Part shown: piece after piece, positions 2,784 to 56,601 of the stretch
Layout: the number at the start of each line of letters is the position of its first letter
Position numbering within the stretch: position 1 is the first letter of the stretch
NCBI GenBank assembly: GCA_045632345.1
Contig: JAZQWM010000082.1
Location: 26,220-90,219, forward strand
Direction: 5' to 3'
Source of the DNA: Eubacteriales bacterium
GTDB taxonomy: Bacteria > Bacillota > Clostridia > Oscillospirales > CAG-272
DNA length: 64,000 bases
Notes under the pieces: model-generated
The model's input: the letters and a program-made list of their open reading frames with translations, nothing else
The model's database searches: none
What the model was told of the DNA's origin: nothing
Position numbers and translations under genes: made by a program

Positions 2784-2874
2784 ATAAACTATCTCCTTTA
2801 AATTAAAAATTAAATTGTCTGGGAAATAATCTATATCTAAATGAACCTCCTTTGCAGTCCATTACAAATGCATT

Positions 2875-2953
2875 GACCGACCGTTAGGGTGACCTAATGC
2901 TGTAAGCCTCAAGGGGCAATCCTCATAACAGCGTTCCAGAAGATTTGTCAGTC
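2875..2953 (-). promoter_or_regulatory. unclassified GC-rich structured 5' leader (candidate three-way junction) of the HNH gene
   Basis: Minus-strand pairings: GACUGAC/GUCGGUC (2947-2953 with 2875-2881), GCUGU/ACAGC (2928-2932 with 2899-2903), UUAGG-UCAC-CCUAA (2884-2897). GC content is clearly above the flanks. Confidence 0.3.
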
Positions 2954-2998
2954 GCCTTTAATTAAAAAAGGGGGTAGATTCGTTGTAACTGCATATTT

Positions 2999-3752: not shown

Positions 3753-3997
3753 AGCATGCTCCCTTCATATTTTATATTCAATATTATAATGTAGCCGCCT
3801 GCGTTTGTCAAGAGGCACGCATTTTTTACCGCTTACGCCAAAAATTAACCGCTTGTGCCAAAGGTATTGCATTTTGCTTCTATTATAGTAAAATAAAATT
3901 GTAAAGAATTTTTAATCTAATCTTGCTGATAGCTTACTGCTGGCGGCTAAGATAAAAAGGAGAGAAAAATGAAAAGATTATTTCTATTTTATTAGTA

Positions 3998-6139: not shown

Positions 6140-6174
6140 CTATTTTAGCGGTTGGTGGCTGGTGGCTGAGTATG

Positions 6175-6280
6175 TCTGCTTCGCAGAGCGATATAACCGA
6201 ATACATTCGGTAGCGATATGCTTTCGCCAAACGAAAGCACGATATTCCGCCTAAGGCGGAGCGATATGCACCTTCGGTGC
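6175..6280. repeat. mini-hairpin array A1 (five hairpins joined by GCGATAT-type linkers)
   Basis: tctgcttcgcaga-GCGATAT-aaccgaatacattcggt-aGCGATAT-gctttcgccaaacgaaagc-aCGATAT-tccgcctaaggcgga-GCGATAT-gcaccttcggtgc. Colinear with 15538-15666. Confidence 0.9.
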
Positions 6281-6364
6281 GTGCTGACCACTGACATAGC
6301 CTCCCTTGTGTAAAGGGAGGGGGACCACGAAGGTGGTGGAAGGATTGTCCTTTCACTGACAACT

Positions 6365-6396
6365 AAAAAAATCCACGGATTGCTCCGTGGATTTTT
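6365..6396 (-). terminator. bidirectional rho-independent terminator (serves the minus-strand gene ending at 6400)
   Basis: A-run, tccacgga-ttgc-tccgtgga, T-run. The hairpin core cacggattgctccgtg recurs at 15427-15456. Confidence 0.85.
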
Positions 6397-6399
6397 GTA

Positions 6400-8733
6400 T
6401 TATTTCTTAATCTTGTACGTTACGTGTACTGCGTTACCGCCTGTTAAGAGAATCATCTCAACTGCTGTCTTTGAGAAGTCGCCAGCCTTAACGATAAGTG
6501 GCTTATTAAGTGTTCCTCTTGCAAGAACCTTAACCGTCTTTGCTCTCTTATCAATAAGCTTCTTTTCCTTCATTGAAGCAAGGTTAACAATATCGTGAGC
6601 CTCGAATGCATCAGATAACGTATCAACGTTAACGATCGCTTTCTTTGTATCCTTAGCGCTAACGTACTCAACGCCTTCCTCTACGTGAACGTCGATATGT
6701 TGTTCCTCAGCGATTTGGTCTGCATCCTCTGCGCTGATTTCTTCAACGATAACCTCGTGCTCCTCGTAAACCTCTTCGATTACTTCTTCTTCGATTACTT
6801 CTTCGATAATTTCAACAGGAGCTTCCTCGATAACTTCCTCGGCCACCTCTGGGGCTACCTCTGGGGCTACCTCTTCGATAATTTCAACAGGAACTTCCTC
6901 AGCTACCTCTTCTACCACCTCAGGAACAGCCTCTTCAACTACTTCCTCGTTAGGTACTTCAGCAACTAATGCTTCTTCCTCAGTTACCTCTTCAACCGGC
7001 TTTGTTGATTTAACTATGATTGCATCATCAGGAATTAAGAGCTTAATTAAGCCACGCTCGATAAGTGGAGCATTTTCCTCATATGGATACATTGCAATAT
7101 AGTCAACTTCCTTAGCCTTTGGTTTTGTTTCAATTTCAAACTTAGCCATTACGATGTCAACAAGCTCCTTAGCCTTTCTAAGACCTAAGCCGCTCTTAAC
7201 CTTAACAAGCATTGGAACGTCTGCGAAGATTTTTGCATCGATTGCTTCGTGGTGATACTTGGACTTGTCAAATTCGTTAGGATCAAGGTTGCAGTAGAGA
7301 CAAATTGTCTTACCTCTTAGCTTCATCTTGAAGAGCTGATCTCTACCTCTGTTGTAGCTATCAAACTTCCAGCTAATTCTTGACTTAACGCCCTTGAATG
7401 ATAAAATGTAATTCTTTAATTCATTGTAATAACCCTTAACTGTGTCATCACTTTGAATGATGTTAGCAGTAATGCTACGGCTGAGCTTAATGTCAAGCTT
7501 GTTGCCGTCCTTATCAAAGTATGTAGGAACAACTACTGTGTTAGCTTCATCGGAAACCTCAACTACCTCCGGAGCTGGCTCCTCAGCCACTTCCTCGATA
7601 ATCTCAACAGGAGCTTCCTCGACAACCTCTTCAATAACCTCAACAGGTACTTCCTCAACTACTTCCTCAACTACTTCCTCAACCACCTCTGGGGCTACCT
7701 CTTCAGCTGCAGGGATTGGTTCTTCAACAACCTCAACAACCTCTTCAATAGCTTCCTCAGCAGTCTTTTCGGATTCTTCCTCAGCTACCTCTTCGATAAT
7801 TTCAACAGGAACTTCAGGGGCTACTTCCTCGGCTACCTCTTCGATAATTTCAACAGGTACTTCTTCAACAACCTCTGGGGCTACCTCTTCAACAACATCT
7901 TCAACTACCTTCTCAACAGGAGCCTCTGCTTCGAGAACGCCGCGTGAGAATAATTGAATTGTAAAGATAGATTCAGCGCCACTCTTATCAAGAATGATTT
8001 CGCCGTCCTTCTTAAAGCCCCAGCCTAAGAAGTTGTCATACTGCTCGTTTTCTTCAGGTAAAGAAAGCTTTAAGTAGTGTGATTCCTTATAGATATTTTT
8101 GTTAGCTACGCTGTCTGTAAAGAGAAGGTCAACGATAGCCTCGCTATTTGTTGGTACACCCGCTTGGCTAACTGGGCTTTCTTCAAATATTGGATAAAGA
8201 TTAATTACAAATGTTGCTTCAACGTCTTCCTTGGTGAGAATTGGCGCTTCATCAGGTGCAAAGCCCCAGCCATCAATTTCAACACCGTCGATTTGCTCAT
8301 CAGGAAGCTTTGTGTTAAGAACGAAGAATTCCTTCTTAACTGCTATATCCTCATCAGCGTCCATGTAATTAAACTCGATAGAAACTGCACTATTTGTTTC
8401 AACGTCCTCCCAAATTGTGTAAAGAGTTGTTGAACGAACTAAACAAAAAACAGAGTTTTCAATAGGCTTGGATTTACCAAGAACCTTTGACCAACCGATA
8501 AGCTTCTTGCCACTCTTTGCAGAGCCGTGGAGCTTAACCTTTTTGAAAAGCGGATGCTTTTCTGTGTGGATAACTACGTCGCCTTCTGTATCCACGTAAG
8601 TAATTGTTGGGCGAACTGTTAAAAGAACGATGCCCATTGTAAGAGCAATAACGGCAACAACGGCGAATAACCATGGGTTAACGTCGAAGATTGAAAGTGT
8701 TACTGCTTGGTTTAACAAACAAGTAAAATTCAT
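6400..8733 (-). CDS. membrane-anchored protein with InlB-B-like repeats, two acidic E/V/P low-complexity regions and a uL15-like C-terminal domain
   Basis: GGAGG RBS 7 nt before ATG 8733 (the track start 8787 is less likely). N-terminal TM helix. GW...TLYxIW-type repeats. C-terminus KVLARGTLNKPLIVKAGDFSKTAVEMILLTGGNAV resembles the ribosomal protein L15 C-terminus. Confidence 0.75.
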   Translation of the reverse strand: MNFTCLLNQAVTLSIFDVNPWLFAVVAVIALTMGIVLLTVRPTITYVDTEGDVVIHTEKHPLFKKVKLHGSAKSGKKLIGWSKVLGKSKPIENSVFCLVRSTTLYTIWEDVETNSAVSIEFNYMDADEDIAVKKEFFVLNTKLPDEQIDGVEIDGWGFAPDEAPILTKEDVEATFVINLYPIFEESPVSQAGVPTNSEAIVDLLFTDSVANKNIYKESHYLKLSLPEENEQYDNFLGWGFKKDGEIILDKSGAESIFTIQLFSRGVLEAEAPVEKVVEDVVEEVAPEVVEEVPVEIIEEVAEEVAPEVPVEIIEEVAEEESEKTAEEAIEEVVEVVEEPIPAAEEVAPEVVEEVVEEVVEEVPVEVIEEVVEEAPVEIIEEVAEEPAPEVVEVSDEANTVVVPTYFDKDGNKLDIKLSRSITANIIQSDDTVKGYYNELKNYILSFKGVKSRISWKFDSYNRGRDQLFKMKLRGKTICLYCNLDPNEFDKSKYHHEAIDAKIFADVPMLVKVKSGLGLRKAKELVDIVMAKFEIETKPKAKEVDYIAMYPYEENAPLIERGLIKLLIPDDAIIVKSTKPVEEVTEEEALVAEVPNEEVVEEAVPEVVEEVAEEVPVEIIEEVAPEVAPEVAEEVIEEAPVEIIEEVIEEEVIEEVYEEHEVIVEEISAEDADQIAEEQHIDVHVEEGVEYVSAKDTKKAIVNVDTLSDAFEAHDIVNLASMKEKKLIDKRAKTVKVLARGTLNKPLIVKAGDFSKTAVEMILLTGGNAVHVTYKIKK
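6700..7000. repeat. in-frame degenerate tandem repeats encoding (E-E-V-x) acidic tract 1
   Basis: Repeated gaagaagt/ctcttcgataatttcaacagg units. They generate spurious antisense ORFs. Confidence 0.8.
7550..7940. repeat. in-frame degenerate tandem repeats encoding acidic tract 2
   Basis: Same unit family as 6700-7000 (ctcttcgataatttcaacagg occurs in both tracts). Confidence 0.8.
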
Positions 8734-8920
8734 AAAAAACCTCCAAAAAATATTCGATACGTACTGTTCGTTGTTATAATTATACAATAATATTATTTAT
8801 TTGTCAACAAATAATTATTAAAATCAGTAAAGTTTTTTGTGAAATTTAGACACTCTGTCCACCGTTTTTTCATTTTGGAGCGTCTTGATTAACAAAAATA
8901 ACGTCAAACTAAATTTACTA

Positions 8921-10285: not shown

Positions 10286-10289
10286 TCAA

Positions 10290-10348
10290 GTTCGCTTCGC
10301 TCACAGGGGATAGGATATAGGAGATAGGGGCTCGCTTCGCTCACAGGG
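10290..10348. repeat. composite repeat: 18-mer / GWYAG heptad tract / 18-mer
   Basis: gttcgcttcgctcacagg (10290-10307), ggggataggatataggagatagggg (10306-10330, GATAG/TATAG/GATAG spaced 7 nt), ggctcgcttcgctcacaggg (10329-10348). Confidence 0.9.
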
Positions 10349-15267: not shown

Positions 15268-15317
15268 GGTTCGCTACGCGAACAGCAGTCAGCGGTTAGC
15301 CGTCAGCGGATAGCGAG
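15268..15317. repeat. 18-mer variant hairpin + GWYAG heptad tract directly after the AKR stop
   Basis: ggttcgctacgcgaac (perfect hairpin variant of the 18-mer), then GTCAG/GTTAG/GTCAG/GATAG at exact 7-nt spacing (15288-15313). Confidence 0.85.
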
Positions 15318-15426
15318 ATTTCAAAACGATTTGAAAAAATCAAGCGGTCAGCAAGCAGTGCCACGCCCCCGTCCCCTGTCACCGCTAAATTGATGAAAAG
15401 TTTTCAGTATAACATATTGTTTTAAT

Positions 15427-15456: not shown

Positions 15457-15537
15457 GTTGGAATTATTGCCCACAAATTACGATTTGTCGCATTAAAATC
15501 AAAAAACTAATTTTGCTGACTGCAGGCGGTTAACACA

Positions 15538-15666
15538 TCTGCTTCGCAGAGCGATATGTCGTGCAATGCACGCGCGATATAACCGAATAACTTCGGTAGC
15601 GATATGCTTTCCCTAGGCGAAAGCTCGATATTCCGCCAAAGGCGGAGCGATATGCACCTTCGGTGC
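15538..15666. repeat. mini-hairpin array A2 (six hairpins, GCGATAT linkers)
   Basis: tctgcttcgcaga-GCGATAT-gtcgtgcaatgcacgc-GCGATAT-aaccgaataacttcggt-aGCGATAT-gctttccctaggcgaaagc-tCGATAT-tccgccaaaggcgga-GCGATAT-gcaccttcggtgc. Confidence 0.9.
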
Positions 15667-15700
15667 GTGCTGACGGCTAACAGCTAACAGCTAACGGCTA
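15667..15700. repeat. heptad tract (gctgacg gctaaca gctaaca gctaacg gcta) overlapping the GH78 stop codon
   Basis: CTRAC core every 7 nt on the plus strand, which reads GTTAG on the GH78 coding strand. Confidence 0.85.
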
Positions 15701-18848: not shown

Positions 18849-18900
18849 TAGCAATATAGCCTTACAGCCATAAACGTTATTAAATCAACAACTAATCTAG

Positions 18901-18959
18901 CTACCCGCTAACGGCTGGCGTTGCCCTGCTGACCACTGACCACTGACCACTGACCACTC
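18901..18959. repeat. heptad tract, nine units in register, ending in perfect (ACTGACC)x4
   Basis: ctacc..ctaac..ctggc..tgccc..ctgac x4, core positions 18901, 08, 15, 22, 29, 36, 43, 50, 57. Confidence 0.95.
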
Positions 18960-18997: not shown

Positions 18998-20482
18998 TTA
19001 TTTCGCTGCTTTCATTGAGTGGTTGTAGCCGTAGATTTTGATATCTCCATTGTCATCAGGCTCAAGCTGATACATAGTATCTCTTGTGTTGGCAATAAGA
19101 CGGTAGAAATCGTCGCTTGCTGAGCAGATTGCAGAAAGGAGCAAGGAGCGGCCGGACTGCGCCTCGGACTCCTTATCGTCAAGAGCGCCAATTAAAAGGT
19201 ATAGAACGCCCATAGATTTCATCTTGCGCTTTACAAAACTTACCGCTTGCTGCTCAATCTCGCGGCAATCGTGCATCTTGGCAGTCTTTTCCTTATCTGA
19301 CACAAGGTGCATAAGACTACGGAGAGCGGAAAGCTTGGTTTGGCACTTGTTAAGCTCCTCTATGATTTGCTTTCTATATCTGTAATCGTTATCCTTGATT
19401 TCGCATTCAAGCTCAGGTAAAAGCTGTGAAAGTGTAGTCATTTCGTCGCCCTTACGGCGTGGGGACTTGTGGATTTCTGTCTTGATTGCATTTACAACCT
19501 TTTGCATTGAGGTCTTAACCGTATCGTCATACTTAGCGCCGGATGTGCTATCGGACTTCTTTGAATACTTAAAGAACTGTGGCTTATTAAGCTTGTTGCC
19601 GTTTGCGTCCTTGGTGGACTTATTACGGATAGCTTTAAGGATATCGCCGGACTTTACGCCGTAATCGCGCTTTGCTCTGTCAATTTCCATACCTGAAAGC
19701 ACCGCGAGCTTGCAGATTTCAAGGTATAAATCCTTATCGTCCTCTCCCTTTGAGAGCTTGTCCCAATAGATACTGTTAAGGAACTGGGAAAGGTTTACAA
19801 TTTTGCCTATCTTGTTGTCGGAAATATCGTTATTCATTTGATAGATAGGAAGATTCTTGGACTTGGATTCAGCGCCGCAGTATGGCACAAGGAACTTGTT
19901 ATAGCTCTTCTTAGCTTCCATATAGCATCTAAGCTCAGGGTCGTACTTAAAATAGCCCTCTAAAATTGATTCCTCACATGGACATTCTACCTTCTTGTAC
20001 TCGTAGGTATCCTCGCCAATTTTATATTCGTCCTTGCTCTTATATGGAACAACAATAGCAATTAGCTTGCCGTCTCTTATACAAACGTTGTCAACTAAGT
20101 CAGTTGCAAAGTCAATACGGTATCATGCGCGTAAATAAACGTAGCCTGTGTGGGACTTCTTTTTGTTGAATTCAAGTAAATCCTTGTCAAAGGTAACGTT
20201 GATAACTGAAAGAGTTGCGCCTGATTCATCGTTGCCAACTGCATAGGTGCCAATCTCAAACTTGCCGTTTATCTTTCTTTGTGCTTTAGCCTTTTCGTAC
20301 TCTTCCTTAAGAGCCTGAACCTCAAGACTGTTATATAGAAATGAATTGAAGCGCTTTAAGTCAAGCTCTCCATCCTCATTGTTAACCTTAAAGGAGCTGC
20401 CTGCTAATTCGAGCTCTACTAGCTCCTTAGCGTCGATTGTTAAAATTCTGTACTTTGGGATTTTCATTTTCTTTACTCTCAT
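18998..20482 (-). pseudogene. 495-codon reading frame interrupted by a single in-frame TGA (20123-20125); unknown function, mobile-element-like
   Basis: Codon-by-codon check shows that track ORFs 20123-20482 and 18998-19921, plus the 67 codons between them, share one frame with no other stop. AGGAG RBS sits before ATG 20482, and there is none before ATG 19921. Confidence 0.7.
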
Positions 20483-27362: not shown

Positions 27363-27794
27363 TTATAGCTTTGCAATATCGCTATCAGTAATAAGTCTGA
27401 GTCCTGCATTTTGCAAAATTGCTTCTGCCTCTTCGTTTTCCTCAACTCTTAATACCACGTAAGCATGTCTTTCTGTACGAGCCATGAAAGCGTACATATA
27501 TTCAATATTGATGCTTGCTTCGTCAAGCGCTTTAAGTGCTGAGGTTAGCTTGCCAGGCTGGTCTCCTATTTTTACGCCAACTACGTTGATTGTTTTAATA
27601 AGGTAGCCAGCCGCTAAAAGAACCTCTTCAGCCTTTTTAGTATCGTTTACGATAAGTCTTAAAATACCGAACGCCTCTGTTTCTGCAATAGATAACGCTC
27701 TTAAATTGATATTGTTGTTTGCAAGGATTTCAGTTACTGAAGCAACTGTTCCCTTTTCATTTTGTACGAATACTGTTACTTGCTTAATTGCCAT
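27363..27794 (-). CDS. ACT domain-containing protein
   Basis: Two ACT-like halves. This is the typical partner gene downstream of PaaK-family ligases. Confidence 0.8.
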   Translation of the reverse strand: MAIKQVTVFVQNEKGTVASVTEILANNNINLRALSIAETEAFGILRLIVNDTKKAEEVLLAAGYLIKTINVVGVKIGDQPGKLTSALKALDEASINIEYMYAFMARTERHAYVVLRVEENEEAEAILQNAGLRLITDSDIAKL

Positions 27795-27807: not shown

Positions 27808-29115
27808 TTACACTAATTTACGCTTGTCAATAACGCGAACTGCCTTGCCTTCGCTTCTTGCGATTGTCTTTGGAGCAACTAAATGTACCTTTGGATTTAT
27901 GCCAAGCATTGCTTTCATAGCTTCGCTAAGTGATTTTTCCATAGAAATAATCTCGCCAACCTTATCGGTAAATTGCTCTGGTGCAAGCTCTACGTTAACC
28001 TCAAAGGTATCTGTATTGTTTACACGGTCAACTACGATTTGGTAGTTTGGCTGATAGCCCTCGTTTAAGAGAACTGTTTCAATTTGGCTTGGGAATACGT
28101 TTACGCCACGGATAATAAGCATATCATCAGTTCTGCCCATAGGCTTAGCCATTTTAACTAACGTACGACCACAGGAGCATTTTTCTCTTGAAAGAACACA
28201 AATATCGCGTGTGCGGTAACGAAGAAGCGGGAACGCTTCCTTATCAAGTGATGTGAAAACAAGCTCTCCCTTTTCTCCCTCAGGTAAAACCTCTCCTGTA
28301 TCAGGGTTGATAATTTCCGCATAGAAGTGGTCCTCATTTATGTGCATGCCTGTTTGCTCACAGCATTCAAATGCTACGCCAGGGCCAGACGTTTCTGTAA
28401 GACCGTAAATATCGTACGCCTTAATACCAAGTGTTGCTTCGATATTCTTTCTCATTTCCTCAGTCCAAGGCTCAGCACCGAAAATGCCCGCCTTTAAAGG
28501 AATATCCTCAGGCTTATAACCCTGCTCCTTTAAGGATTCGCCAATATATGCAGCGTATGATGGTGTGCAGCAAATAATTGATGCGTTTAAGTCCATCATA
28601 AATTGAATTTGTCTATCTGTGCTGCCTGATGACATAGGAAGTGTAAGACAGCCTACCTTATGAGAGCCACCGTTAAGACCTGCGCCACCTGTAAATAGAC
28701 CGTAGCCGTAAGCTACTTGGCACACATCCTTTTTGCTTCCGCCTGCTGCCACAATAGCTCTTGCACAGCAATCCTCCCATAAATCAATATCGTTTTGAGT
28801 GTAGAACGCCACAACTCTACGGCCTGTTGTACCTGATGTTGAGTGAATTCTTACACATTCATCAAGAGGCTTTGCTAAAAGACCGTATGGGTATGCATCT
28901 CTTAAATCAGCCTTTGAAAGGAAAGGAAGCTTATATAAATCATCAATTCCCTTAATATCCTCAGGCTTAACGCCTTTTTCGTCCATTAAATTACGGTAAT
29001 ACTCTACGTTTTCGTAAACGTGCTTTACCTGCTTAACAAGCTTTTCTGATTGGAGCTTTTTCATGTCCTCTCTGGACATGGTTTCAATTTCTCTTTGGTA
29101 ATAGTTTTTTTCCAT
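27808..29115 (-). CDS. phenylacetate--CoA ligase family protein (PaaK / F390 synthetase-like adenylating enzyme)
   Basis: Length and motifs (SSGTTGRxV, YGLTE, C-terminal GKAxRVIDxR) match the PaaK family. Confidence 0.88.
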   Translation of the reverse strand: MEKNYYQREIETMSREDMKKLQSEKLVKQVKHVYENVEYYRNLMDEKGVKPEDIKGIDDLYKLPFLSKADLRDAYPYGLLAKPLDECVRIHSTSGTTGRRVVAFYTQNDIDLWEDCCARAIVAAGGSKKDVCQVAYGYGLFTGGAGLNGGSHKVGCLTLPMSSGSTDRQIQFMMDLNASIICCTPSYAAYIGESLKEQGYKPEDIPLKAGIFGAEPWTEEMRKNIEATLGIKAYDIYGLTETSGPGVAFECCEQTGMHINEDHFYAEIINPDTGEVLPEGEKGELVFTSLDKEAFPLLRYRTRDICVLSREKCSCGRTLVKMAKPMGRTDDMLIIRGVNVFPSQIETVLLNEGYQPNYQIVVDRVNNTDTFEVNVELAPEQFTDKVGEIISMEKSLSEAMKAMLGINPKVHLVAPKTIARSEGKAVRVIDKRKLV

Positions 29116-29164: not shown

Positions 29165-29479
29165 TTCTTTTCTCATGTAGAAAACAAAACGCCCTCTGCA
29201 TTCCGAAAAGAATACAGAGGACGAGAAACTATCCCGTGGTACCACCTCAGTTCGCCACCGTCTCACAACGGCAGCCTTTTCAGGTACTAACATACCTTAG
29301 TTCTATGACGGGAACACCCGTTGCATCCTACTAGGGAAACCCCATTCAGCGCACAGCTAACAGAATGAATTCGTGAAGGATAACTCCCTTGCCTCGCACC
29401 AAACGGCAATTCTCTGAACGGGTTATTCCAGCCTACTACTTTCTGCTCATCGCATTTACATGAATAATTTTTCATTCAT
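29165..29479 (-). promoter_or_regulatory. T-box riboswitch leader, specifier UUC (Phe), with intrinsic terminator
   Basis: On the minus strand: stem I GCGAUGAGCAGAAAGUAGUA, AGAGA box, distal GGUGCGA loop, specifier loop ACGAA-UUC-A (29369-29367), T-box core GAGGUGGUACCACGGG (29247-29232), terminator cctctgtattc-ttttcg-gaatgcagagg + U-run (about 29220-29178). Confidence 0.85.
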
Positions 29480-33058: not shown

Positions 33059-33161
33059 AGCTAAATTTGCGTTGCACGCAAGCTAAATTTGGTCGCGATA
33101 TGCTTTCGCCAAGCGAAAGCGTGATATGCACCTTCGGTGCGCGCTAACCGCTGACAGCTGC
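33059..33161. repeat. mini-hairpin array A3 + CTRWC heptad tract
   Basis: aGCTAAATTT-gcgttgcacgc-aaGCTAAATTT-ggtc-GCGATAT-gctttcgccaagcgaaagc-gTGATAT-gcaccttcggtgc-gcgctaaccgctgacagctgc. The last two hairpins are shared with A1 and A2. Confidence 0.9.
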
Positions 33162-35520: not shown

Positions 35521-35755
35521 CAAAACCTCAGAGTTTTGGTTTTATAGTTATGAGTTTGGCTCTGCCAAACGTTATGATGTGCTACCGCACAGTTATGATT
35601 TTGCCTACGGCAAAAGTTATGATATGATTGCCTAGCTAACTTCAAGCGTGGCTCCGCCACTCATAACTGCGAGCGTCGCGAGCATCATAACTACGCTAAG
35701 CGTATCATAGCTTGCCGTTAGGCAATCATAGTTGATTTTCGCGTTACGAAAATCA
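35521..35755. repeat. mini-hairpin array A4 with GTTATGAT linkers that switch to the complementary ATCATAAC/ATCATAG linkers midway
   Basis: Ten hairpins (e.g. gtttggc-tct-gccaaac, gtgc-tacc-gcac, ttttgcc-tac-ggcaaaa, gtggc-tcc-gccac, acgc-taa-gcgt, ttgcc-gtta-ggcaa, tgattttcg-cgtta-cgaaaatca). The last hairpin contains the guaA stop codon. Confidence 0.85.
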
Positions 35756-37676: not shown

Positions 37677-38543
37677 TTAACGGCTTTTATATTCCTTTAA
37701 AATTTCGCCTGCTACGTAATCGTTTACTCTGCCCTGGTAGTGGATTAAGTCCCAACGGAAAATGTTACAGTCCCACGCGTATTCGTCATAAAGCGGGCAA
37801 GTCCTTACATCGTAAACTGACGCGTTTTTCATTTCCTTAGCAAGAATATCAAAGGTGTCATTGATATAATGCATGCTCTCAAGACGGCTTCCGCCGTCCT
37901 CTTTATCACGGTTAGCAAATACCTTATTAAATGGGAAGCGGTGGAATACTACGGGCGCATCACAACCGATAGCAGAGCGAATACCACCGAAGATTTCAAG
38001 ATACGTATCCTTTAAAAACGTCTCTAATTTAGACACAGGGTAGTCTGTTTCCTGCTCTCCTCCACGCCAATGTATGCCTACATAGTCAGGCTCTAGCTCA
38101 TTTGCTTCCATGTACTTTTTAAAGAGTGTTAGCACGTGAATAGCAAGAGGATACATGGAAATATCACAATCTCCAAGCTTACCTCTTATCATTTTTGGCG
38201 CACGCTTAGGGTCCCACATACCTGTAACCCCCTGTGAGCCAATAGCTATATGAATAATATAAAGGTCAGGTAATTCTACGCCGCTATCAATATCATTTTG
38301 CCAATGCTTAGCAAGGCAGTTTGCTATGGAATATGTGTTATCCTGTGTCTCTGCAAGATTCATACCGTAGCTTGTATAACCTGTAAACTTTAATTTTTCT
38401 GTATCGTATGATTGGTTAGGCTCTCTATTTAAGCCCCATACATTTTTAAGAGGCACTTTAATAATATCCTCTTCACTCATAGGCATAGCGTGGCCAACTG
38501 CATTTGATTGACCGAATAACATAAAAATAGCAATTTTTTTCAT
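37677..38543 (-). CDS. sialate O-acetylesterase-like (DUF303/SGNH-type) carbohydrate esterase
   Basis: N-terminal GQSNAVGH motif. The true start is probably ATG 38543 (MKKIAIFMLFGQSN), preceded by the shared leader TGACTGAAAGGAACGAA. The track's 26 extra codons translate repeat DNA. Confidence 0.7.
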   Translation of the reverse strand: MKKIAIFMLFGQSNAVGHAMPMSEEDIIKVPLKNVWGLNREPNQSYDTEKLKFTGYTSYGMNLAETQDNTYSIANCLAKHWQNDIDSGVELPDLYIIHIAIGSQGVTGMWDPKRAPKMIRGKLGDCDISMYPLAIHVLTLFKKYMEANELEPDYVGIHWRGGEQETDYPVSKLETFLKDTYLEIFGGIRSAIGCDAPVVFHRFPFNKVFANRDKEDGGSRLESMHYINDTFDILAKEMKNASVYDVRTCPLYDEYAWDCNIFRWDLIHYQGRVNDYVAGEILKEYKSR

Positions 38544-38574
38544 TTCGTTCCTTTCAGTCACTTCATTCAAGGAG

Positions 38575-39112
38575 TCAGGGGACAGGGGTTCGCTTCGCTC
38601 ACAGGGATAGTTAGTAAACAATTTTTTATAACTAATCCACAGCTATCTCGCATTTTTCCAAATCACCTGAATAAATCCTACCTTTAAAGTGCATTTAATC
38701 ATTTAGACTTAATTTTTTCACTATTGCATTTATTAGTTTAGCTACTTCTTTACAACCTTGCATAACAGTATCTACTGTTTCTTCTTTTTCAAAATAGCCA
38801 AGCATTTTACAAATTTCTAACTGTGTTTCAAGTTCTGCTCTTGACGCATTTGCGATAAATAAAAACTGTATGTATTCCTTTGTGCTTCTTCGCTCGTATC
38901 CTTCTGCAATGTTGGAAGGAATAGAAATAACGCTTCTTCTCATTTGATCTGCTAAAGCAAACCTCTCATTGTTTGGTAATTGATTTATAAGCCCATATGT
39001 ATCTTTTACCAAATCCATTGCTTTTTGCCAAACCACTAAATCTCTATAATCTCTCATAAACTAATCCCCCTGTGAGCAAGGCGAACCCCTGTCTCCTGTC
39101 CCTTGTCCCCTG
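38575..39112 (-). mobile_element. inverted-repeat-bounded cassette carrying a four-helix-bundle gene (IVS-like / MITE-like element)
   Basis: Left arm is tcaggggacaggggttcgcttcgctcacaggg (38575-38606). The reverse complement of the right arm (39066-39112) is caggggacaagggacaggagacaggggttcgccttgctcacaggggg. The core of about 25 nt matches with 2 mismatches. Confidence 0.65.
38695..39057 (-). CDS. four-helix-bundle protein (23S rRNA intervening-sequence protein family, Avd-like)
   Basis: MRDYRDLVVWQKAMDLV...ISIPSNIAEGYERRSTKEYIQFL...ELETQLEI matches the family signature closely. Its RBS (AGGGGG) lies inside the cassette arm. Confidence 0.9.
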   Translation of the reverse strand: MRDYRDLVVWQKAMDLVKDTYGLINQLPNNERFALADQMRRSVISIPSNIAEGYERRSTKEYIQFLFIANASRAELETQLEICKMLGYFEKEETVDTVMQGCKEVAKLINAIVKKLSLND

Positions 39113-45977: not shown

Positions 45978-45985
45978 ACGTAAAA

Positions 45986-46170
45986 GGGGATAGGGTATAG
46001 GGGCTCATTGCATTCGCAGGGGTTCGCTATGCTCACAGGAGAAATTAGTTCGAACGAAAATAACGAAGAAAAGAAATAAGCACTTTCAAGTGGCGTGGAT
46101 AATATAAAATGTCAAAGGATAATGCGATAGAGTAATTACCCTATCCCCTATCCCCTGACCCCTGTCCCCT
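45986..46170 (+). mobile_element. gene-less inverted-repeat element in the pheS-pheT spacer (same family as 38575-39112)
   Basis: Left arm ggggatagggtatagggg (45986-46003) plus 18-mer ggttcgctatgctcacagg (46021-46039). Right arm ccctatcccctatcccctgacccctgtcccct (46139-46170). The arms pair at 16 of 17 positions. Confidence 0.65.
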
Positions 46171-46174
46171 TGAG

Positions 46175-46193
46175 TGACTGAAAGGAACGAAAT
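46175..46193 (+). promoter_or_regulatory. shared RBS leader TGACTGAAAGGAACGAA(AT) immediately 5' of the pheT ATG
   Basis: The 17-nt string is identical to the reverse complement of 38544-38560, upstream of the esterase ATG. A related ACTGAAAGGAGTGAAC lies at 33167-33182. Confidence 0.8.
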
Positions 46194-48683: not shown

Positions 48684-48723
48684 GGCTCGCTTCGCTCACA
48701 GCCGTCAGCCGTCAGCGGTTAGC
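48684..48723. repeat. 18-mer + GWYAG heptad tract
   Basis: ggctcgcttcgctcacag, then ccgtcag ccgtcag cggttag c. Confidence 0.9.
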
Positions 48724-48765: not shown

Positions 48766-48795
48766 TAGCTACTAACCACTAGCCACTTACCACTA
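48766..48795. repeat. heptad tract (tagctac taaccac tagccac ttaccac ta)
   Basis: 7-nt periodicity. It reads as the GWYAG type on the minus strand, downstream of the minus-strand gene. Confidence 0.8.
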
Positions 48796-48826: not shown

Positions 48827-50788
48827 TCATTTCTCTACTACGAAAATTGGGTTTTCGCTTACGTTTACGGTTACAACGCCGTTTTCGTTTTCAAGGTCGG
48901 ATTGCTTACCTGCATATGCTTCGTTTACAAATTGAACAAGCTTAAAGTCGCCGTTTCCTACATTTAATTTATAGTCAGGAACCTTTGTGCCGTCTGATGT
49001 CTTGCACCATACTGCATACTTAGCTTTGCCCTCATTTGTTACGTACTTATAAAGCATTACGTTTTCGTTGCCTGAATCAAGAACTGAGTCAAAGTAGCAA
49101 TTCTTAAGCATTTCCTTTAAGGTATATACGTAATAGAAGGAATCCTTCTTATTACCTTGAATTACGTTTGTTGGGTCGATTTCGATTGGGAATCTGATAA
49201 GACCGCTTGAGCCATACTTACCAACTGCTGTTTCCTCAGGACCACAGTCTCTTGACATATACATAGCCGCCTTTTCAATACCGATTGATGAAAGAAGCAA
49301 GTATTCACGAACGAGCCACATAGCTTGAACCTGTCTGCCTGTGTATTCTCCATAAGCGTGAGCAGAGGTTGAAGTCTTAAAGCTTTGGTTAGTATCCCAA
49401 CCGAACTCTGTAAGCCAAATTTCCATATCCGGATAGTATCTATCGCGGAAATCACGGATTGTGTCAAACGCCTTGTCGATATTGCCCTCTTCCGGAGAAA
49501 CGCCTACCCAAATAGCTTGACCTTGGTCGCCACGGTCATCAAGGTTAACGTTACCGTATTTTGCTGCTACGCCGTCTGCATCAAGCTTCTTACCACAGTA
49601 GCAGTGAGCATTGATTACGTCAAACGGGAGCTTTCCGTCCTTACGGTTGTACTTGCACCAGAATTGCATTGCACGAAGTCTGCCATAATGCAAGCCTGCG
49701 CCGCCTGACATTGACATCATAAAGTTAGGGTCAGCCTGCTTAACGCCTACGTTCTTATACTTACCCTCGTGTCCGTCATAGCACATACTTAAAAATGCTG
49801 CATGCTCAAACGGTGTGTAGTATGGAATTCTGCCAAGCCATGTTCCGTCTGGCTCATTAAGTGGCTCGAGAGCCTTCATAACGCCAAGACCGATTTTCTT
49901 TTCTTGACCCTCAGCAACTTGAATTAAATCCGGGTCAATATCCTTATTGCTACCGTATCTTGCAACGATTTGCCAAAGCATTGCTGCATAGCTGTAATAG
50001 TTATATGGGTCTGTTGAGTCGCAAACCTGGTCCTTAGGGTCTCTCTTTGAGTGCGTTGAATAGGTTGGTACACATTCGATGCCCCATTTAGCAAGCTTTG
50101 TGTAGTATTCGTCAAAGTCCCAAGGTCCTGCAAATGATGGGCTCATTGCAAGCTTTGTGTTTTCTCTGTCCGGAACACATGACCATGTCCATGGGTGGTA
50201 CTCACGGATATAGTTAACTGCTCTTAATACGTCGTTACCATCGTTGATAAATGCGTTCATACCAACGAAATGCTCAAGAGACTTCTTCTTATGCTCTTTT
50301 CTTTCAGGAATTTCTTCAACTACATCCTCAACCTTATAGCCGTAAACGATAATTTCGCTTGGAGCTTGGTTGTTATTGAAGCTAAAGTTGATATATCTTG
50401 TCTTATAGTTAGTTTCAAATCCTGTCCACTTTCTTACCTCTGGAGCAAGCTCCTCATTATACTCCCAAGTAAATGGAGTACCCATCTTAACTCTAACCTT
50501 ACGAACGCCGTAGTCAGCCTTATCCTTTTCAGGCTTATGTTCGTCATAGTTATTGAAGATGTACATATTTGTAATTTGGTAAATGCCGTCAAGCTCAACA
50601 GTAAATGACATATCTGTTTGACCGATCCACCAGTGGTCGTGTCTATGGTGAATTTGTGGAATTTGTCCCTCTATACCGTATAGTGGGTCGCCATCATTAT
50701 CAAATTCGCAGAAGAGGTTTTCAACTCTTTCAATACCCATATCATTGATAATCATTTCTGGGGTAATTCTAATCTTTTGTGGTTTCAT
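48827..50788 (-). CDS. putative glycoside hydrolase: N-terminal discoidin-like domain + clan GH-A-like TIM barrel (cytoplasmic paralog)
   Basis: WLTEFGWDTN nucleophile-type motif. Paralogous along its whole length to 50813-52786. No signal peptide. Confidence 0.55.
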   Translation of the reverse strand: MKPQKIRITPEMIINDMGIERVENLFCEFDNDGDPLYGIEGQIPQIHHRHDHWWIGQTDMSFTVELDGIYQITNMYIFNNYDEHKPEKDKADYGVRKVRVKMGTPFTWEYNEELAPEVRKWTGFETNYKTRYINFSFNNNQAPSEIIVYGYKVEDVVEEIPERKEHKKKSLEHFVGMNAFINDGNDVLRAVNYIREYHPWTWSCVPDRENTKLAMSPSFAGPWDFDEYYTKLAKWGIECVPTYSTHSKRDPKDQVCDSTDPYNYYSYAAMLWQIVARYGSNKDIDPDLIQVAEGQEKKIGLGVMKALEPLNEPDGTWLGRIPYYTPFEHAAFLSMCYDGHEGKYKNVGVKQADPNFMMSMSGGAGLHYGRLRAMQFWCKYNRKDGKLPFDVINAHCYCGKKLDADGVAAKYGNVNLDDRGDQGQAIWVGVSPEEGNIDKAFDTIRDFRDRYYPDMEIWLTEFGWDTNQSFKTSTSAHAYGEYTGRQVQAMWLVREYLLLSSIGIEKAAMYMSRDCGPEETAVGKYGSSGLIRFPIEIDPTNVIQGNKKDSFYYVYTLKEMLKNCYFDSVLDSGNENVMLYKYVTNEGKAKYAVWCKTSDGTKVPDYKLNVGNGDFKLVQFVNEAYAGKQSDLENENGVVTVNVSENPIFVVEK

Positions 50789-54293: not shown

Positions 54294-54322
54294 TTGACAA
54301 ATAAACAATTTCATAGTAAAAT
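54294..54322 (+). promoter_or_regulatory. putative promoter of the second GT2 gene
   Basis: TTGACA-17 nt-TAAAAT. Confidence 0.7.
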
Positions 54323-54338
54323 TATATCATAAGTAAAA

Positions 54339-54410
54339 CTAACAATCACTAATCTATCCCGCTGACCGCTATCGGCTAACCGCTGACAGCTGTGAGCGAC
54401 CGAAGGGAGC
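54339..54410. repeat. CTRWC heptad tract + 18-mer variant forming the 5' UTR and RBS of the GT2 gene
   Basis: ctaac..ctatc..ctgac..ctatc..ctaac..ctgac..ctgtg (69-73, 76-80, 83-87 and 90-94 in exact 7-nt register), then ctgtgagcgaccgaagggagc supplying AGGGAG 8 nt before the ATG. Confidence 0.85.
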
Positions 54411-54417
54411 TAACCTA

Positions 54418-55647
54418 ATGAAACTTTCAGTTATTATCTGTGTATATAACACAGAAAAGCAGTATTTCGAGGAATGCTTAAAATCAATTAGAAAATCAAC
54501 TCTTAAGGATTACGAAATACTTGTTATTGACGACGGCTCAACTACTGACTATTCGGACGTTATTGAGAAATATGAGCCAAGATACGTAAAAACAGAAAAC
54601 AGAGGTCTTTTTGCCGCAAGACTTTTTGCTTTAACTATTGCTAAGGGCGATTACGTAACGTTTGTTGACAGCGACGATTCCGTTACCTTCAACTACCATC
54701 AGCCTATGGTTAATGCGGCTATCAATCTTGATGCTGACGTTGTTATAAACGACTGGGCATTCCACACGGAAAGAACAAGATATTTCTGTGTAAACGACCC
54801 GCTTATCCGTGAAGATATTACCTTAAACGGCGATGAGTGCTTAAAGGAGTTTGCCGCACAGGAGGGACGCGCTCACTCATACTTTGTTCATTGGAATAAG
54901 GTTACAAAAAGAAGCGTACTCTTAAAGGCGAAGGCAGAGCTTGAGTCCACCCACATTATTATGCATAAGCATACGTATTCTGAGGACGCTATTATAAACT
55001 TCTTTGTGTTCAGAAACGCTAAAAAGGTTACAAATATCCACACAGGTTACTATTTTTACAGAATTCATGAGGATCAAAGCGTAAACGCTTCAAACAGGGA
55101 CAAGCTTATTTCTCAAATTGATGATATGGCAAGATCCTTTAATATTATGCTTGTAAATATCAGTAAGAATATGTACGCAAAGGAAATCAAGTACAGTATT
55201 CTTAAGTGGCGTGAGCTAATGTCAAGAACACATTACTCCTACGCTAAGGCTGGCAAGCATTCTGACCTTTACGATTACATTAAAGAAGCATACGAGGTTG
55301 ACACGCTTTCTAAGTCAACTACTAAGGACGGCGAGCTTTATGCAAAAACTCAGCTTTTAGGCGATAATTTCCTTGAAATTGATAAATGCCTACGCAACAT
55401 CTACTTTACAAAAGCAAACGTTACCGTAATGTACGATAAGAGCGACCTTTACGTTGTCCGCACAATGCGATACATTGAAAGAATGAAGCGAGGCGAAACG
55501 GAAACAGAGCAAAAAACCCTCTTTGTTCCAACCAAGGTAGTAAGCGCAAAAAATCGCTTCTTACATAACCATCTTGTGTACAACATAGGGCTACGCCTTT
55601 TCAAAAAGGGCTCAAAAATCCGCGCGTTTTTAAAGAGTAAATTCTAA
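54418..55647 (+). CDS. GT2 family glycosyltransferase (soluble) with C-terminal domain of unknown function
   Basis: KLSVIICVYNTEKQYFEECLKSI...YEILVIDDGSTD and DSDD motifs. Confidence 0.85.
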   Translation: MKLSVIICVYNTEKQYFEECLKSIRKSTLKDYEILVIDDGSTTDYSDVIEKYEPRYVKTENRGLFAARLFALTIAKGDYVTFVDSDDSVTFNYHQPMVNAAINLDADVVINDWAFHTERTRYFCVNDPLIREDITLNGDECLKEFAAQEGRAHSYFVHWNKVTKRSVLLKAKAELESTHIIMHKHTYSEDAIINFFVFRNAKKVTNIHTGYYFYRIHEDQSVNASNRDKLISQIDDMARSFNIMLVNISKNMYAKEIKYSILKWRELMSRTHYSYAKAGKHSDLYDYIKEAYEVDTLSKSTTKDGELYAKTQLLGDNFLEIDKCLRNIYFTKANVTVMYDKSDLYVVRTMRYIERMKRGETETEQKTLFVPTKVVSAKNRFLHNHLVYNIGLRLFKKGSKIRAFLKSKF

Positions 55648-55654
55648 TAAAAAA

Positions 55655-55685
55655 GACACATCCTAAAGGGGTGTGTCATTTTTTT
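55655..55685 (+). terminator. rho-independent terminator
   Basis: gacacatcc...gggtgtgtc followed by ATTTTTTT. Confidence 0.8.
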
Positions 55686-55864
55686 AGCCGCCAGCCGTTA
55701 GCAGTCAGCCCGCACCGAAGGTGCATATCGCTACGAAGCAGTGCTTCGTTTTATCGCTGAATTACGGAGTAATTTTATATTGCTCGCCGTAGGCGTATCT
55801 CGCTCTGCAAAGCAACGCTTTGCAATTTACCTGTTGCGAAGCAACAATTTACCGCTGGCGGCTA
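55685..55864. repeat. mini-hairpin array A5 (inverted orientation) enclosed by an 11-bp inverted repeat
   Basis: TAGCCGCCAGC (55685-55695) ... gcaccgaaggtgc-ATATCGC-acgaagcagtgcttcgt-tTTATCGC-...-gccgtaggc-...-tgcaaagcaacgctttgca-ATTTACC-tgttgcgaagcaaca-ATTTACCgc ... GCTGGCGGCTA (55854-55864). Confidence 0.85.
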
Positions 55865-55893
55865 AAAAATCCACACCTCTCGGTGTGGATTTT
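55864..55893 (-). terminator. rho-independent terminator (minus strand)
   Basis: AAAAAA-tccacacc-tctc-ggtgtgga-TTTT. Confidence 0.85.
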
Positions 55894-55896
55894 GTA

Positions 55897-56538
55897 TTAT
55901 AGCTTTGAGAAGCCGTGGCAGTTTACGAGGCCGTCGATTTTGTCGCCATTTTTGCAAAGTGGGCAATTATGGGATTCGTAGGTTGCGTAGCCGTCAAGGT
56001 CCTTAGGGTCAAATACGGATTCAACCTTATAGCCCATATATTCATCAATGGTTGCGAAGATTGAGCATACGCCTGCTACTCTGCCTCCGTAGTATTTTAC
56101 AGCGTCAATAGCTGCGCCTACCGTTCTGCCTGTGGCAACGGATGCGGCAAGAACTAAAACGTTTTTACCCTTGATTGTATTTACTAGATTATCTCTGAAA
56201 ATAAGCTGACTTCCGCTTGTTTGCTCCGGAGTTGTTACGTAAATAGTTTGATGAGCATTGATGCTTGCATATCCGCCCTTTGTAAGCTCAACTGCAAGGC
56301 AAGTGCCAACTACCTCCATTCCGTCAAGACATAAAATTGTGTCAACTATTGTGTTTGACTCGTAATAATTTACAAGCTCGCTTGCTACCGCCTGAGCCTC
56401 GGAAAGACGTGATTTTTGCATTGAAACGTCAATGTAATAGTTACTATGGCTATTGCTTGTAGCAAAGTGTCCCTTTAAAACTCTAAGATATAAATTCTTG
56501 TTTTTTGTTAAAACCTTAATCGCGTTTTTTTCTAACAT
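55897..56538 (-). CDS. phosphoribosyltransferase-like (OPRT-fold) protein with degenerate PRPP loop and C-terminal Cys motif
   Basis: GHFATSNSHSNYYID resembles the OPRT N-terminal motif. VLVLAASVATGRT replaces the usual acidic VLxVDDVxTTG. CPLC...CH at the C-terminus. The start could be ATG 56538 or 56565. Confidence 0.55.
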   Translation of the reverse strand: MLEKNAIKVLTKNKNLYLRVLKGHFATSNSHSNYYIDVSMQKSRLSEAQAVASELVNYYESNTIVDTILCLDGMEVVGTCLAVELTKGGYASINAHQTIYVTTPEQTSGSQLIFRDNLVNTIKGKNVLVLAASVATGRTVGAAIDAVKYYGGRVAGVCSIFATIDEYMGYKVESVFDPKDLDGYATYESHNCPLCKNGDKIDGLVNCHGFSKL

Positions 56539-56601
56539 GGTAAAAAACCCCTTTTTCTTTATCATATCATAAGTTTTTTACGGTGTCAACAAAAAAATTT
56601 A

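Follow-up and report, generated by a model that had tools for sequence, protein, structure and literature searches.

Ahead of a family-2 glycosyltransferase (GT2) gene lies a tract of degenerate seven-nucleotide repeats, one of 13 such tracts that a first-pass annotation listed in the window (the whole stretch of DNA analysed, 64,000 nt). These tracts were said to obey a strand rule: read on the coding strand of the adjacent gene, they are of the GWYAG type (G-type) after stop codons and of the CTRWC type (C-type) immediately before ribosome-binding sites (RBS). The polarity was taken to argue for an RNA-level or transcription-coupled function, with a HutP- or TRAP-like ring-shaped protein that binds RNA as one candidate and pairing between the two tract types as another. 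The locus raises the question of how general this rule is, and what it says about the nature of the tracts.

All 13 tracts were found at their given coordinates, each with the polarity described when read on the coding strand of its neighbor: those at 3′ ends were G-type in 9/9 cases, and those on the RBS side were C-type in 4/4 (Table 1). TRF and a separate lag-7 scan each recovered the listed tracts; among the lag-7 runs of the window, 10 were wholly intergenic, two extended across an ORF end and one, AT-rich, lay within a gene. The three-unit CTRAC pattern CTRACNNCTRACNNCTRAC matched the window six times, vs. no match in 100 shuffles. Further tracts had been missed by the annotation (3922-3951, 6145-6170, 6281-6295, 6354-6366, 15343-15388, 15515-15534 and 55851-55865), and those among them that sit at the edge of an intergenic region all obeyed the rule (5/5; 3922-3951, 6145-6170, 6281-6295, 6354-6366 and 55851-55865). 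The statement that every tract abutting an RBS is C-type holds when only the nearest ORF end is considered, but fails for tract 39087-39112, which is G-type yet also lies 29 nt 5′ of the next start codon (39057). As for the neighboring genes, Pfam searches of the window identified SHMT (glyA), an aldo-keto reductase (AKR), a GH78 rhamnosidase, PheS, PheT and two GT2 genes, in agreement with the names given to them, and weakly supported DUF3006; the designations “esterase” (37677-38543) and “GH” (48827-50788) had no Pfam match to lean on. A scan of the window with Rfam at gathering score gave no match at any tract or array, its only matches being a Staphylococcus-1 RNA and a T-box leader, both away from the tracts, and an exact-protein look-up of PheS returned no record.

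Table 1. Heptad-bearing regions of the window and the features associated with them (positions count from the first nucleotide of the window).
Feature	Position	Strand	Remarks
C-type tract CTTGCTGATAGCTTACTGCTGGCGGCTAAG	3922-3951	+	Tail AATCTAATCTTG before; SD and ATG (3969) after
Composite between two terminators	6145-6366	+	G-rich arm 6145-6170, GCGATAT array 6176-6280, C-type 6281-6295, further dispersed module 6298-6345, C-type 6354-6366
glyA trailer	10289-10348	+	TTCGCTTCGCTCACAG, GGGGATA-type heptads 10306-10330, second TTCGCTTCGCTCACAG
AKR trailer	15269-15342	+	Hairpin GTTCGC-TAC-GCGAAC, G heptads 15284-15317, tail CGAGATTT
GH78 side	15515-15700	+	Heptad-like flank 15515-15534, GCGATAT array 15539-15666, C-type 15667-15700 (on the − strand G-type, providing the TAG stop codon of GH78)
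Tail AACAACTAATCTAG and C-type tract including (CTGACCA)x4	18885-18959	+	TRF; on the − strand G-type, directly past the terminator of gene 18998-19921(−)
Two-hairpin GCGATAT array and C-type tract 33141-33161	33085-33161	+	24 nt ahead of ATG 33186
Module CTGTGAGCGAAGCGAA and C-type CCCCTGTCCCCTGA	38575-38606	−	31 nt 5′ of ATG 38543
DUF3006 trailer	39066-39112	−	G-type from the stop codon, module GTTCGCCTTGCTCACAG, SD and ATG of 38695-39057; occupies the entire 55-nt spacer
Whole pheS-pheT spacer, lineage-specific insertion	45978-46193	+	216 nt
pheS G-arm, GGGGATA type	45986-46003	+	8 nt past the pheS stop codon
C-arm CCCTATC/CCCTGWC	46139-46170	+	Reverse-complement type of the G-arm; pairs with it in the predicted fold
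RBS module GTGACTGAAAGGAACGAAAT	46174-46193	+	Identical 20-mer at 38542-38561, before gene 37677-38543(−); the shared 20-mer ends at the start codon
Module CTCGCTTCGCTCACAG and G-type tract	48684-48723	+	Past the pheT terminator
C-type arm	48766-48795	+	On the − strand G-type, directly past the terminator of 48827-50788(−)
Predicted sigma-70-like promoter TTGACA-17-TAAAAT	54294-54322	+	11/12 consensus matches
AT-rich tail CTAACAATCACTAATCTATCCC, interior-facing	54339-54360	+	Other copies have homologous AATCAATAATCWAATCTCG tails
Four C-type heptads GCTGACC GCTATCG GCTAACC GCTGACA GCTG (tract core)	54361-54392	+	TRF
ORF-proximal module CTGTGAGCGACCGAAGGGAG and spacer GCTAACCTA	54390-54417	+	SD at 54403-54409
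GT2 intrinsic terminator	55655-55684	+	Trailer tract begins right past the T-run
G-type trailer AGCCGCC AGCCGTT AGCAGTC AGCC	55686-55710	+	TRF
Variable-hairpin array with constant linkers	55712-55850	−	Linkers ATATCGC (reverse orientation), then AATTTACC
Short C-type arm ACCGCTGGCGGCTAA	55851-55865	+	Adjoins the terminator of gene 55897-56565(−)

We examined the rule beyond the window in loci of related genomes, obtained by scanning a genome collection with the hairpin GATATGCACCTTCGGTGC, which precedes four of the tracts. The scan yielded 95 blocks of at most 8 kb each, mostly from MAGs of gut Clostridia, and the window together with 83 Clostridia loci made up a test set of 626 kb, 84% of it coding according to our own ORF caller. 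The sample thus consists of ~0.6 Mb of draft-MAG DNA, with loci chosen through the array anchor. Two syntenic sister species, JAZSHT (SGB_476) and JBGVPY (fecal_MAG_177), share ~88-90% nucleotide identity with the window. Tract type was assigned by counts of GNYAG vs. CTRNC; an assignment by G-minus-C skew was dropped, as it misfiled AGCNGTY tracts. Although 84% of the set is coding, 85 tracts were intergenic and only 17 genic, and with phase-chained motifs the figures were 75 and 7, respectively. With a minimum of three in-phase hits, no farther than 50 nt from an ORF end, 23 G-type and no C-type tracts lay past stop codons, and 13 C-type tracts and one G-type tract lay ahead of starts (Fisher p=3.9e-9, window plus 83 loci). 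A tabulation of orientation against gene ends, which the first-pass annotation had proposed, was likewise non-random over the 626 kb: assigned to the nearer ORF, 46/56 tracts followed the rule by GNYAG/CTRNC classes (46:10, p=1.2e-6) and 42/54 by phase-chained motifs (42:12). Most exceptions, on inspection, were explained by small uncalled ORFs or were inner tracts of multi-tract regions. Where both types shared an intergenic region, the order of the arms was GC or GGC in 10 regions and CG in none. The tail motif was also tried as an orientation marker and dropped (10:8); it sits in the middle of the spacer, so that its distances are uninformative.

Read on the + strand, G-type tracts occupy the left edge and C-type tracts the right edge of intergenic regions in all four classes of flanking gene orientation. 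The rule is therefore that the G-type strand leads, 5′ to 3′, out of the nearest ORF regardless of the direction in which that ORF is read, an inside-out architecture that is independent of gene orientation. Since such a rule is invariant under reverse complementation, polarity alone cannot argue for transcription coupling. The annotation was thus right that the polarity is real and strong, and the pairing it considered is possible, but its step from polarity to an RNA-level or transcription-coupled function does not follow, and neither, as detailed below, does a HutP-like protein. Beyond transcription-coupled polarity, which this symmetry argument rules out, replication-oriented motifs of the KOPS type were ruled out by the presence of both orientations within single intergenic regions, stop-codon insulation leaves the polarity unexplained, as both strands have stops in all frames, and selection against SD-like sequences in leaders cannot account for the 23:0 ratio at 3′ ends.

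What the tracts belong to emerged from 34 tract-bearing intergenic regions of the sister species, in which the heptads form one module of an oriented unit of about 80-100 nt. The unit begins with a hairpin, continues with AG and the heptads, and ends in a tail rich in A and T, CGAGATTTGATTATTGATT. In the hairpin position stands GTTCGC-NNN-GCGAAC or its variant TTCGCTTCGCTCACAG (seven copies in the window vs. 0.45 expected), or else a terminator or a local palindrome that incorporates the ORF end. The heptads follow the formula AG(NSGWY AG)n, with the consensus A-G-(C>T>G)-(G>C>A)-G-(T>>A,C)-Y, and exactly four in-phase motif hits were counted in 47/75 tracts (range 3-6). The hairpin end faces the ORF and the tail points to the intergenic interior, with units standing singly or as inverted pairs whose tails face each other; hairpin-array anchors with heptads behind them pointed to the nearer ORF in 17/19 cases. 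This hairpin-outward, tail-inward build makes intergenic regions read G-arm to C-arm on either strand.

The unit is closely joined to the genes it faces. Ahead of genes it merges into the ribosome-binding site, with the SD within or just past its hairpin, and the RBS-context motif GCGACYGAAAGGAG was present in 8/18 tract-bearing leaders vs. 6/559 other leaders (p=4e-10). At 3′ ends, the stop codon is often the first TAG of the tract, as in GH78. Moreover, perfect palindromes (7 bp or longer) that take in the last codons and the stop codon of the gene were found at 7/31 tract-followed ORF ends vs. 29/525 others (p=0.002), the heptads beginning 0-2 nt past them, and the palindrome at glyA, ACGAATAATCGC-AA-GCGATTATTCGT, occurs in no genome but the one with an AGTGGTC tract there. 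These palindromes suggest either hairpin-targeted insertion or copying of the ORF end by fold-back or template switching.

At the GT2 locus, the predicted promoter lies upstream of the tract, which places the tract within the 5′ UTR of the GT2 gene (54418-55647). Phase-chained motifs form a chain of four hits at 54362-54387, followed by CTGTGAGCGACCGAAGGGAG, a 9-nt spacer and the ATG at 54418; the module at 54390-54417 has relatives in TTCGCTTCGCTCACAG, read as its reverse complement, and in the GCGACYGAAAGGAG leaders found elsewhere. By BLAST against the window and the loci, the leader (54334-54415) shares ~80-87% identity over 55-106 nt with other copies, which comprise leaders of unrelated genes (two in locus L126 and one in L123), a trailer in reversed orientation (L153) and a unit facing a 3′ end (L196). 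Judged by these alignments, a single type of ~80-nt unit stands ahead of some genes as a leader and, reversed, behind others as a trailer. Downstream of the gene, the array at 55712-55850 sits between two heptad arms.

At the pheS-pheT junction, the spacer between the two genes measures 11-36 nt in 79 relatives and holds an SD and its spacing only, with no tract, so both arms in the window are derived, and the spacer represents an insertion of ~200 nt into a formerly coupled operon junction. The interior of the insertion had no second copy in the window and loci searched by BLAST, and a check for target-site duplications found none that was clear at pheS-pheT, while AGCGG direct repeats bound a 38-nt indel that distinguishes the AKR trailer from its ortholog (L154). 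At glyA, the trailer is of the GGGGATA type in the window and in JAZSHT (L201), and of the AGTGGTC type, with entirely different modules, in JBGVPY (L147). Neither the presence of a tract nor its heptad subfamily is thus conserved at orthologous genes, at ~88% nucleotide identity, a turnover that argues against gene-specific regulatory roles. Chains numbered 10.9 per 100 kb in the window; the two sister species, whose loci are biased, had 39-43, and 382 kb of other Clostridia loci had 0.3 per 100 kb; PheS-related contigs of 80 metagenomic relatives (415 kb) contained none. The repeat family is confined to the lineage of the window and the two sister species.

With moderate confidence, we assign the tracts, as heptad arms, to a family of intergenic mosaic repeats that is specific to one lineage and resembles REPINs and BIMEs or MITEs. 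Homologous copies are dispersed, lie in both orientations to genes, are restricted to one lineage, have inserted into an operon spacer and differ by indels between heptads. The copies found by BLAST are small (<300 nt) and extragenic; inverted doublets are evident from the arm order (GC/GGC vs. CG, 10:0) and from the complementary pheS-pheT arms; and orthologous sites are polymorphic for insertions, namely the pheS-pheT spacer and the glyA trailer. REP, BIME and REPIN elements of Proteobacteria lie outside genes as mosaics in which small palindromes are joined by conserved linkers, with inverted doublets that look the same on both strands; they are typically located at 3′ ends and within operons, form lineage-specific families and are presumably mobilised in a single-strand-specific manner; the REPIN concept itself is reportedly that of Bertels and Rainey. 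The family described here is like them in being an extragenic palindrome mosaic with inverted doublets, 3′-end and operon sites and lineage restriction. It differs in that REPs have conserved stems and no heptad arrays, whereas here the hairpins vary and the linkers are constant, and in that neither a RAYT nor any other transposase was found among the 46 window ORFs scanned; nor was an autonomous copy identified.

Under this repeat-family reading, units would have spread by a copy/insertion process, by one-strand slippage and template switching, or by both, and would have been kept only where their ORF-facing end served a need of the gene, be it for a stop codon, an SD or a 3′ hairpin. In transcripts, a leader would then offer a platform of G-poor CUR repeats ahead of its hairpin or SD, and a trailer would place YAG repeats beside hairpins; any regulatory effect, such as 3′-end protection or ribosome standby, is probably secondary. 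Two observations ask for more than this. Lone tracts follow the rule 22:6, which would not be expected if symmetric elements inserted purely at random, and the enrichment of palindromes at ORF ends calls for an extra mechanism, be it fold-back, template switching or hairpin targeting.

Heptameric intergenic repeats of odd polarity have been known since the STRRs of cyanobacteria, and the closest precedents for our tracts are of this kind. Rehm et al. (2015; PMC4692102) described GGGNATC heptamers, with GGGAATC in Xanthomonas and GGGGA(C/T)T of the STRR type in Nostoc, that obey the same positional rule: the G-rich strand lies nearest its 5′ neighboring ORF regardless of the orientation of that ORF. 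Four units were the preferred length in those repeats too, and no function was found for them. The tracts studied here share with these repeats the intergenic tandem heptamers, the rule, the four-unit preference, the inverted pairs, and the variation in length and sequence between close relatives. They differ in phylum (gut Clostridia), in their degenerate AG-N-S-G-W-Y unit, which is mostly incapable of forming G-quadruplexes (G4; 3/75 capable), in being part of a larger unit whose hairpin faces the ORF and whose tail is AT-rich, in being joined to hairpin arrays, and in that some leaders carry an SD. The TAACTGA heptamers of Beggiatoaceae, Cyanobacteria and Bacteroidetes, which point toward start codons in 147/170 sets (MacGregor 2015; PMC4679880), are similar in their CTRA core a few nucleotides before the ATG, in adjoining genes of unrelated function and in their patchy phylogenetic distribution. 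Those repeats, however, often replace a canonical RBS and are rare at 3′ ends (PMC4679880), whereas the tracts studied here have an SD behind them and are just as common, in reverse orientation, past stop codons.

The polar heptamer phenomenon is herewith extended to gut Clostridia, where the heptads are one module of a hairpin-bearing unit able to supply stop codons, 3′ hairpins and ribosome-binding sites, and where at least one pair of arms arose by insertion at a formerly translationally coupled operon junction. This architecture, its modularity and its insertion origin may guide work on the older heptamer systems. A literature search for the exact heptad strings returned no relevant paper. 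Separately, the generic heptad pattern was compared with viral contigs, and among the matches listed were unrelated coding repeats.

A different reading, which we consider possible but rather unlikely, is that the tracts are RNA-level punctuation whose polarity is kept by selection on transcripts. On its way into an ORF, a polymerase, whether sense from upstream or antisense from downstream, first meets a G-poor, C-rich CUR repeat, whose transcript could be a platform for Rho loading or ribosome standby; a transcript that runs out of an ORF has a hairpin with YAG repeats, which could aid 3′-end stabilisation or termination; and leaders and trailers could pair in cis or in trans. The predicted placement of the GT2 tract in a 5′ UTR behind a strong promoter fits this proposal, as does the SD inside or just past the hairpin of leader units, and the trailers of GH78 and AKR precede a terminator and so are transcribed; translational control has also been proposed for the TAACTGA repeats (MacGregor 2015; PMC4679880). 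Other trailers speak against it. In the window, six of them directly follow the T-run of an intrinsic terminator (at 6145, 6366, 18959, 48795, 55686 and 55865), and at a seventh (48702) the terminator is followed by ~30 nt and a hairpin module before the tract. Trailers past terminators are largely outside the primary transcript, yet all seven obey the rule. The same transcript-level selection is at odds with the loss and replacement of tracts at orthologs and with the absence of the family from all more distant relatives sampled.

In RNA folding, the MFE structure of the pheS-pheT spacer joined its two arms (z=-2.6), which lends plausibility, for this spacer, to the idea of the annotation that the two tract types pair with each other. 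Pairing between any G arm and any C arm amounted to about -1.3 kcal/mol per nt. Within-region specificity was absent, however, as the arms of ten pairs were no more complementary to each other than to arms of other regions (permutation p=0.76). The GT2 leader did not fold better than shuffled sequence (z=-1.5), and ORF-proximal hairpins were no stabler on the sense than on the antisense strand (ddG -0.66, n.s., in trailers and 0.01 in leaders). Counts of G·U followed the G-type strand in leaders and trailers alike, which probably reflects base composition. In favor of an RNA state, isolated transition mismatches in the GCGATAT arrays, scored on the linker-forward strand, were A·C in 13 cases vs. 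G·T in 2 (p=0.007); they read as G·U/G·T on the strand on which the adjoining heptads are G-type. This asymmetry hints at a strand-specific single-stranded state (RNA or ssDNA), which the mosaic-repeat model does not require, or at a strand-specific mutation bias.

We attach little probability to a further possibility, a dedicated strand-specific process that lays units at ORF boundaries, a genome-wide network of trailer-leader pairing, or both. Such a process may build a palindrome on the last or first nucleotides of the ORF and then add YAG heptads on the strand running 5′ to 3′ away from it, which may amount to a telomere-like polarity at both ends of the gene; in the network, G-type trailers, as 3′-UTR-derived RNAs, may titrate C-type leaders beside ribosome-binding sites. 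If true, either would explain the obedience of lone tracts, the four-unit length in tracts without G4, and the strand-asymmetric mismatches.

HutP sites consist of three NAG motifs at 4-nt spacing and TRAP sites of 9-11 (G/U)AG triplets 2-3 nt apart, and both are single, gene-specific leader elements that control a terminator. That G-type tracts are site arrays for a ring-shaped RNA-binding protein of this kind, reading YAG every 7 nt, seems to us very improbable. The G-type strand does read YAG every 7 nt, i.e., with the NAG-N4 spacing of HutP sites, as the annotation observed, and the prevalence of four hits (47/75) would suit a binder of fixed size; the likeness to TRAP, on the other hand, is lost, since the triplets are 4 nt apart and mostly four in number (3-6). 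The tracts are dispersed, bidirectional and often located past terminators. Leaders, which are C-type 13:1, present the complementary strand of the same repeat family, which has no YAG, and a protein reading YAG in trailers could not read the complementary CUR in leaders, which argues against such a protein as the organising principle. Tracts adjoin ~3-5% of ORF ends, and the genes concerned are without functional coherence. Neither HutP (PF09021) nor TRAP had a match among the 46 ORFs scanned in the 64-kb window. The strand rule, having already been published for other bacteria and belonging to the arms of a repeat family, is no evidence for a HutP-like RNA switch.

It is just as improbable that the four-unit preference is explained by non-B DNA or RNA structures of the sort proposed for GGGNATC repeats, in which the G strand would form a G4 and the C strand an i-motif: four-unit GGGAATC and GGGGA(C/T)T repeats that follow the same rule form G4 in vitro (Rehm et al. 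2015; PMC4692102), and here too GGGGATA-type tracts are present (10306-10330, 45986-46003 and six in locus L137) and four in-phase hits are the mode, but at least four GGG runs occur in only 3/75 tracts, and the dominant AGTGGTC, AGCGGTT and AGCCGTT, which cannot form a canonical G4, show the same rule and the same length mode. As units unable to form a G4 show the rule and the four-unit preference alike, the explanation hitherto favored for polar heptamers, the G-quadruplex, is removed. On the practical side, units of this kind break up MAG assemblies and distort the calling of gene starts in the uncultured gut species studied here.

Some of the G-type heptad tracts (YAG every 7 nt) adjoin perfect palindromes at the ends of ORFs, in which the left arm is formed by the gene's own final codons and stop codon, with the heptads following directly. 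Such palindromes were enriched five-fold where the ORF end bears a tract. Also found beside the heptads is a further dispersed module, AGCCTCCCTTGTGTAAAGGGAGGGGGACCACGAAGGTGGTGGAAGG, in which G-rich hairpins are paired with C-rich ones; in the sister species, which are syntenic with the window, it was found repeatedly adjoining heptad tracts.

Hairpin arrays in the window, for which no Rfam match was found, join dissimilar small hairpins by a constant linker of 7-8 nt (GCGATAT; AATTTACC; or GTTATGAT and its complement TCATAACT). Mismatches within the arrays differ by strand (13 A.C versus 2 G.T), and the same GCGATAT arrays are carried by many gut Clostridia MAGs that are free of heptads.

Features in the window and in related loci (L-numbers)
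Feature	Location	Strand	Remarks
Palindromes on ORF ends	L147 5911 region; L176 4452, 6093; L123 3707; L129 6846; L189 1070; L197 3472		L147: glyA 3' end
Dispersed module	window 6298-6345; L181 989-1087; also L154, L147, L201
Hairpin arrays	window 6176-6280, 15539-15666, 33085-33140, 55712-55850; also 35540-35720
23S rRNA intervening-sequence protein gene	window 38695-39057	-	bAvd-like four-helix bundle
Eight-codon ORF MKRLFLFY*	window 3969-3995	+	good Shine-Dalgarno (SD) sequence
Small Cys-rich ORF	L133 2300-2470		SCIFF-like peptide; unannotated; own terminator
Staphylococcus-1 RNA	window 2861-2986	-	Rfam, 107.9 bits
445-aa ORF, HNH nuclease domain	window 1446-2783	-
T-box leader	window 29214-29459	-	97.2 bits
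795-aa ORF	window 6400-8787	-

Among the genes touching heptad tracts, the SCIFF-like ORF lies within a 497-nt "intergenic" region and has a G-type tract at its 3' side, in line with the rule that the G-type strand runs 5' to 3' away from the nearest ORF end. The intervening-sequence protein gene is flanked by a heptad unit on either side, the 5' one constituting the whole 55-nt spacer and adjoining the gene's SD. The eight-codon ORF has a C-type (complementary-strand) tract upstream (3922-3951) and, just downstream, a long ORF (3998-6109) that lacks an ATG start. The arrangement could reflect a frameshift or a start called at the wrong place, or the short ORF could encode a leader peptide.

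Elsewhere in the window, the Staphylococcus-1 RNA lies immediately upstream of the HNH ORF, and the two may constitute an RNA-nuclease pair. The T-box leader precedes two genes, one AMP-binding (phenylacetate-CoA-ligase-like; 27808-29115) and one with an ACT domain (27363-27794), an unusual T-box cargo. The sole Pfam match of the 795-aa ORF is a ribosomal L15 domain (residues 718-786), and the rest overlaps tandem repeats of 12-72 nt (6773-7918).
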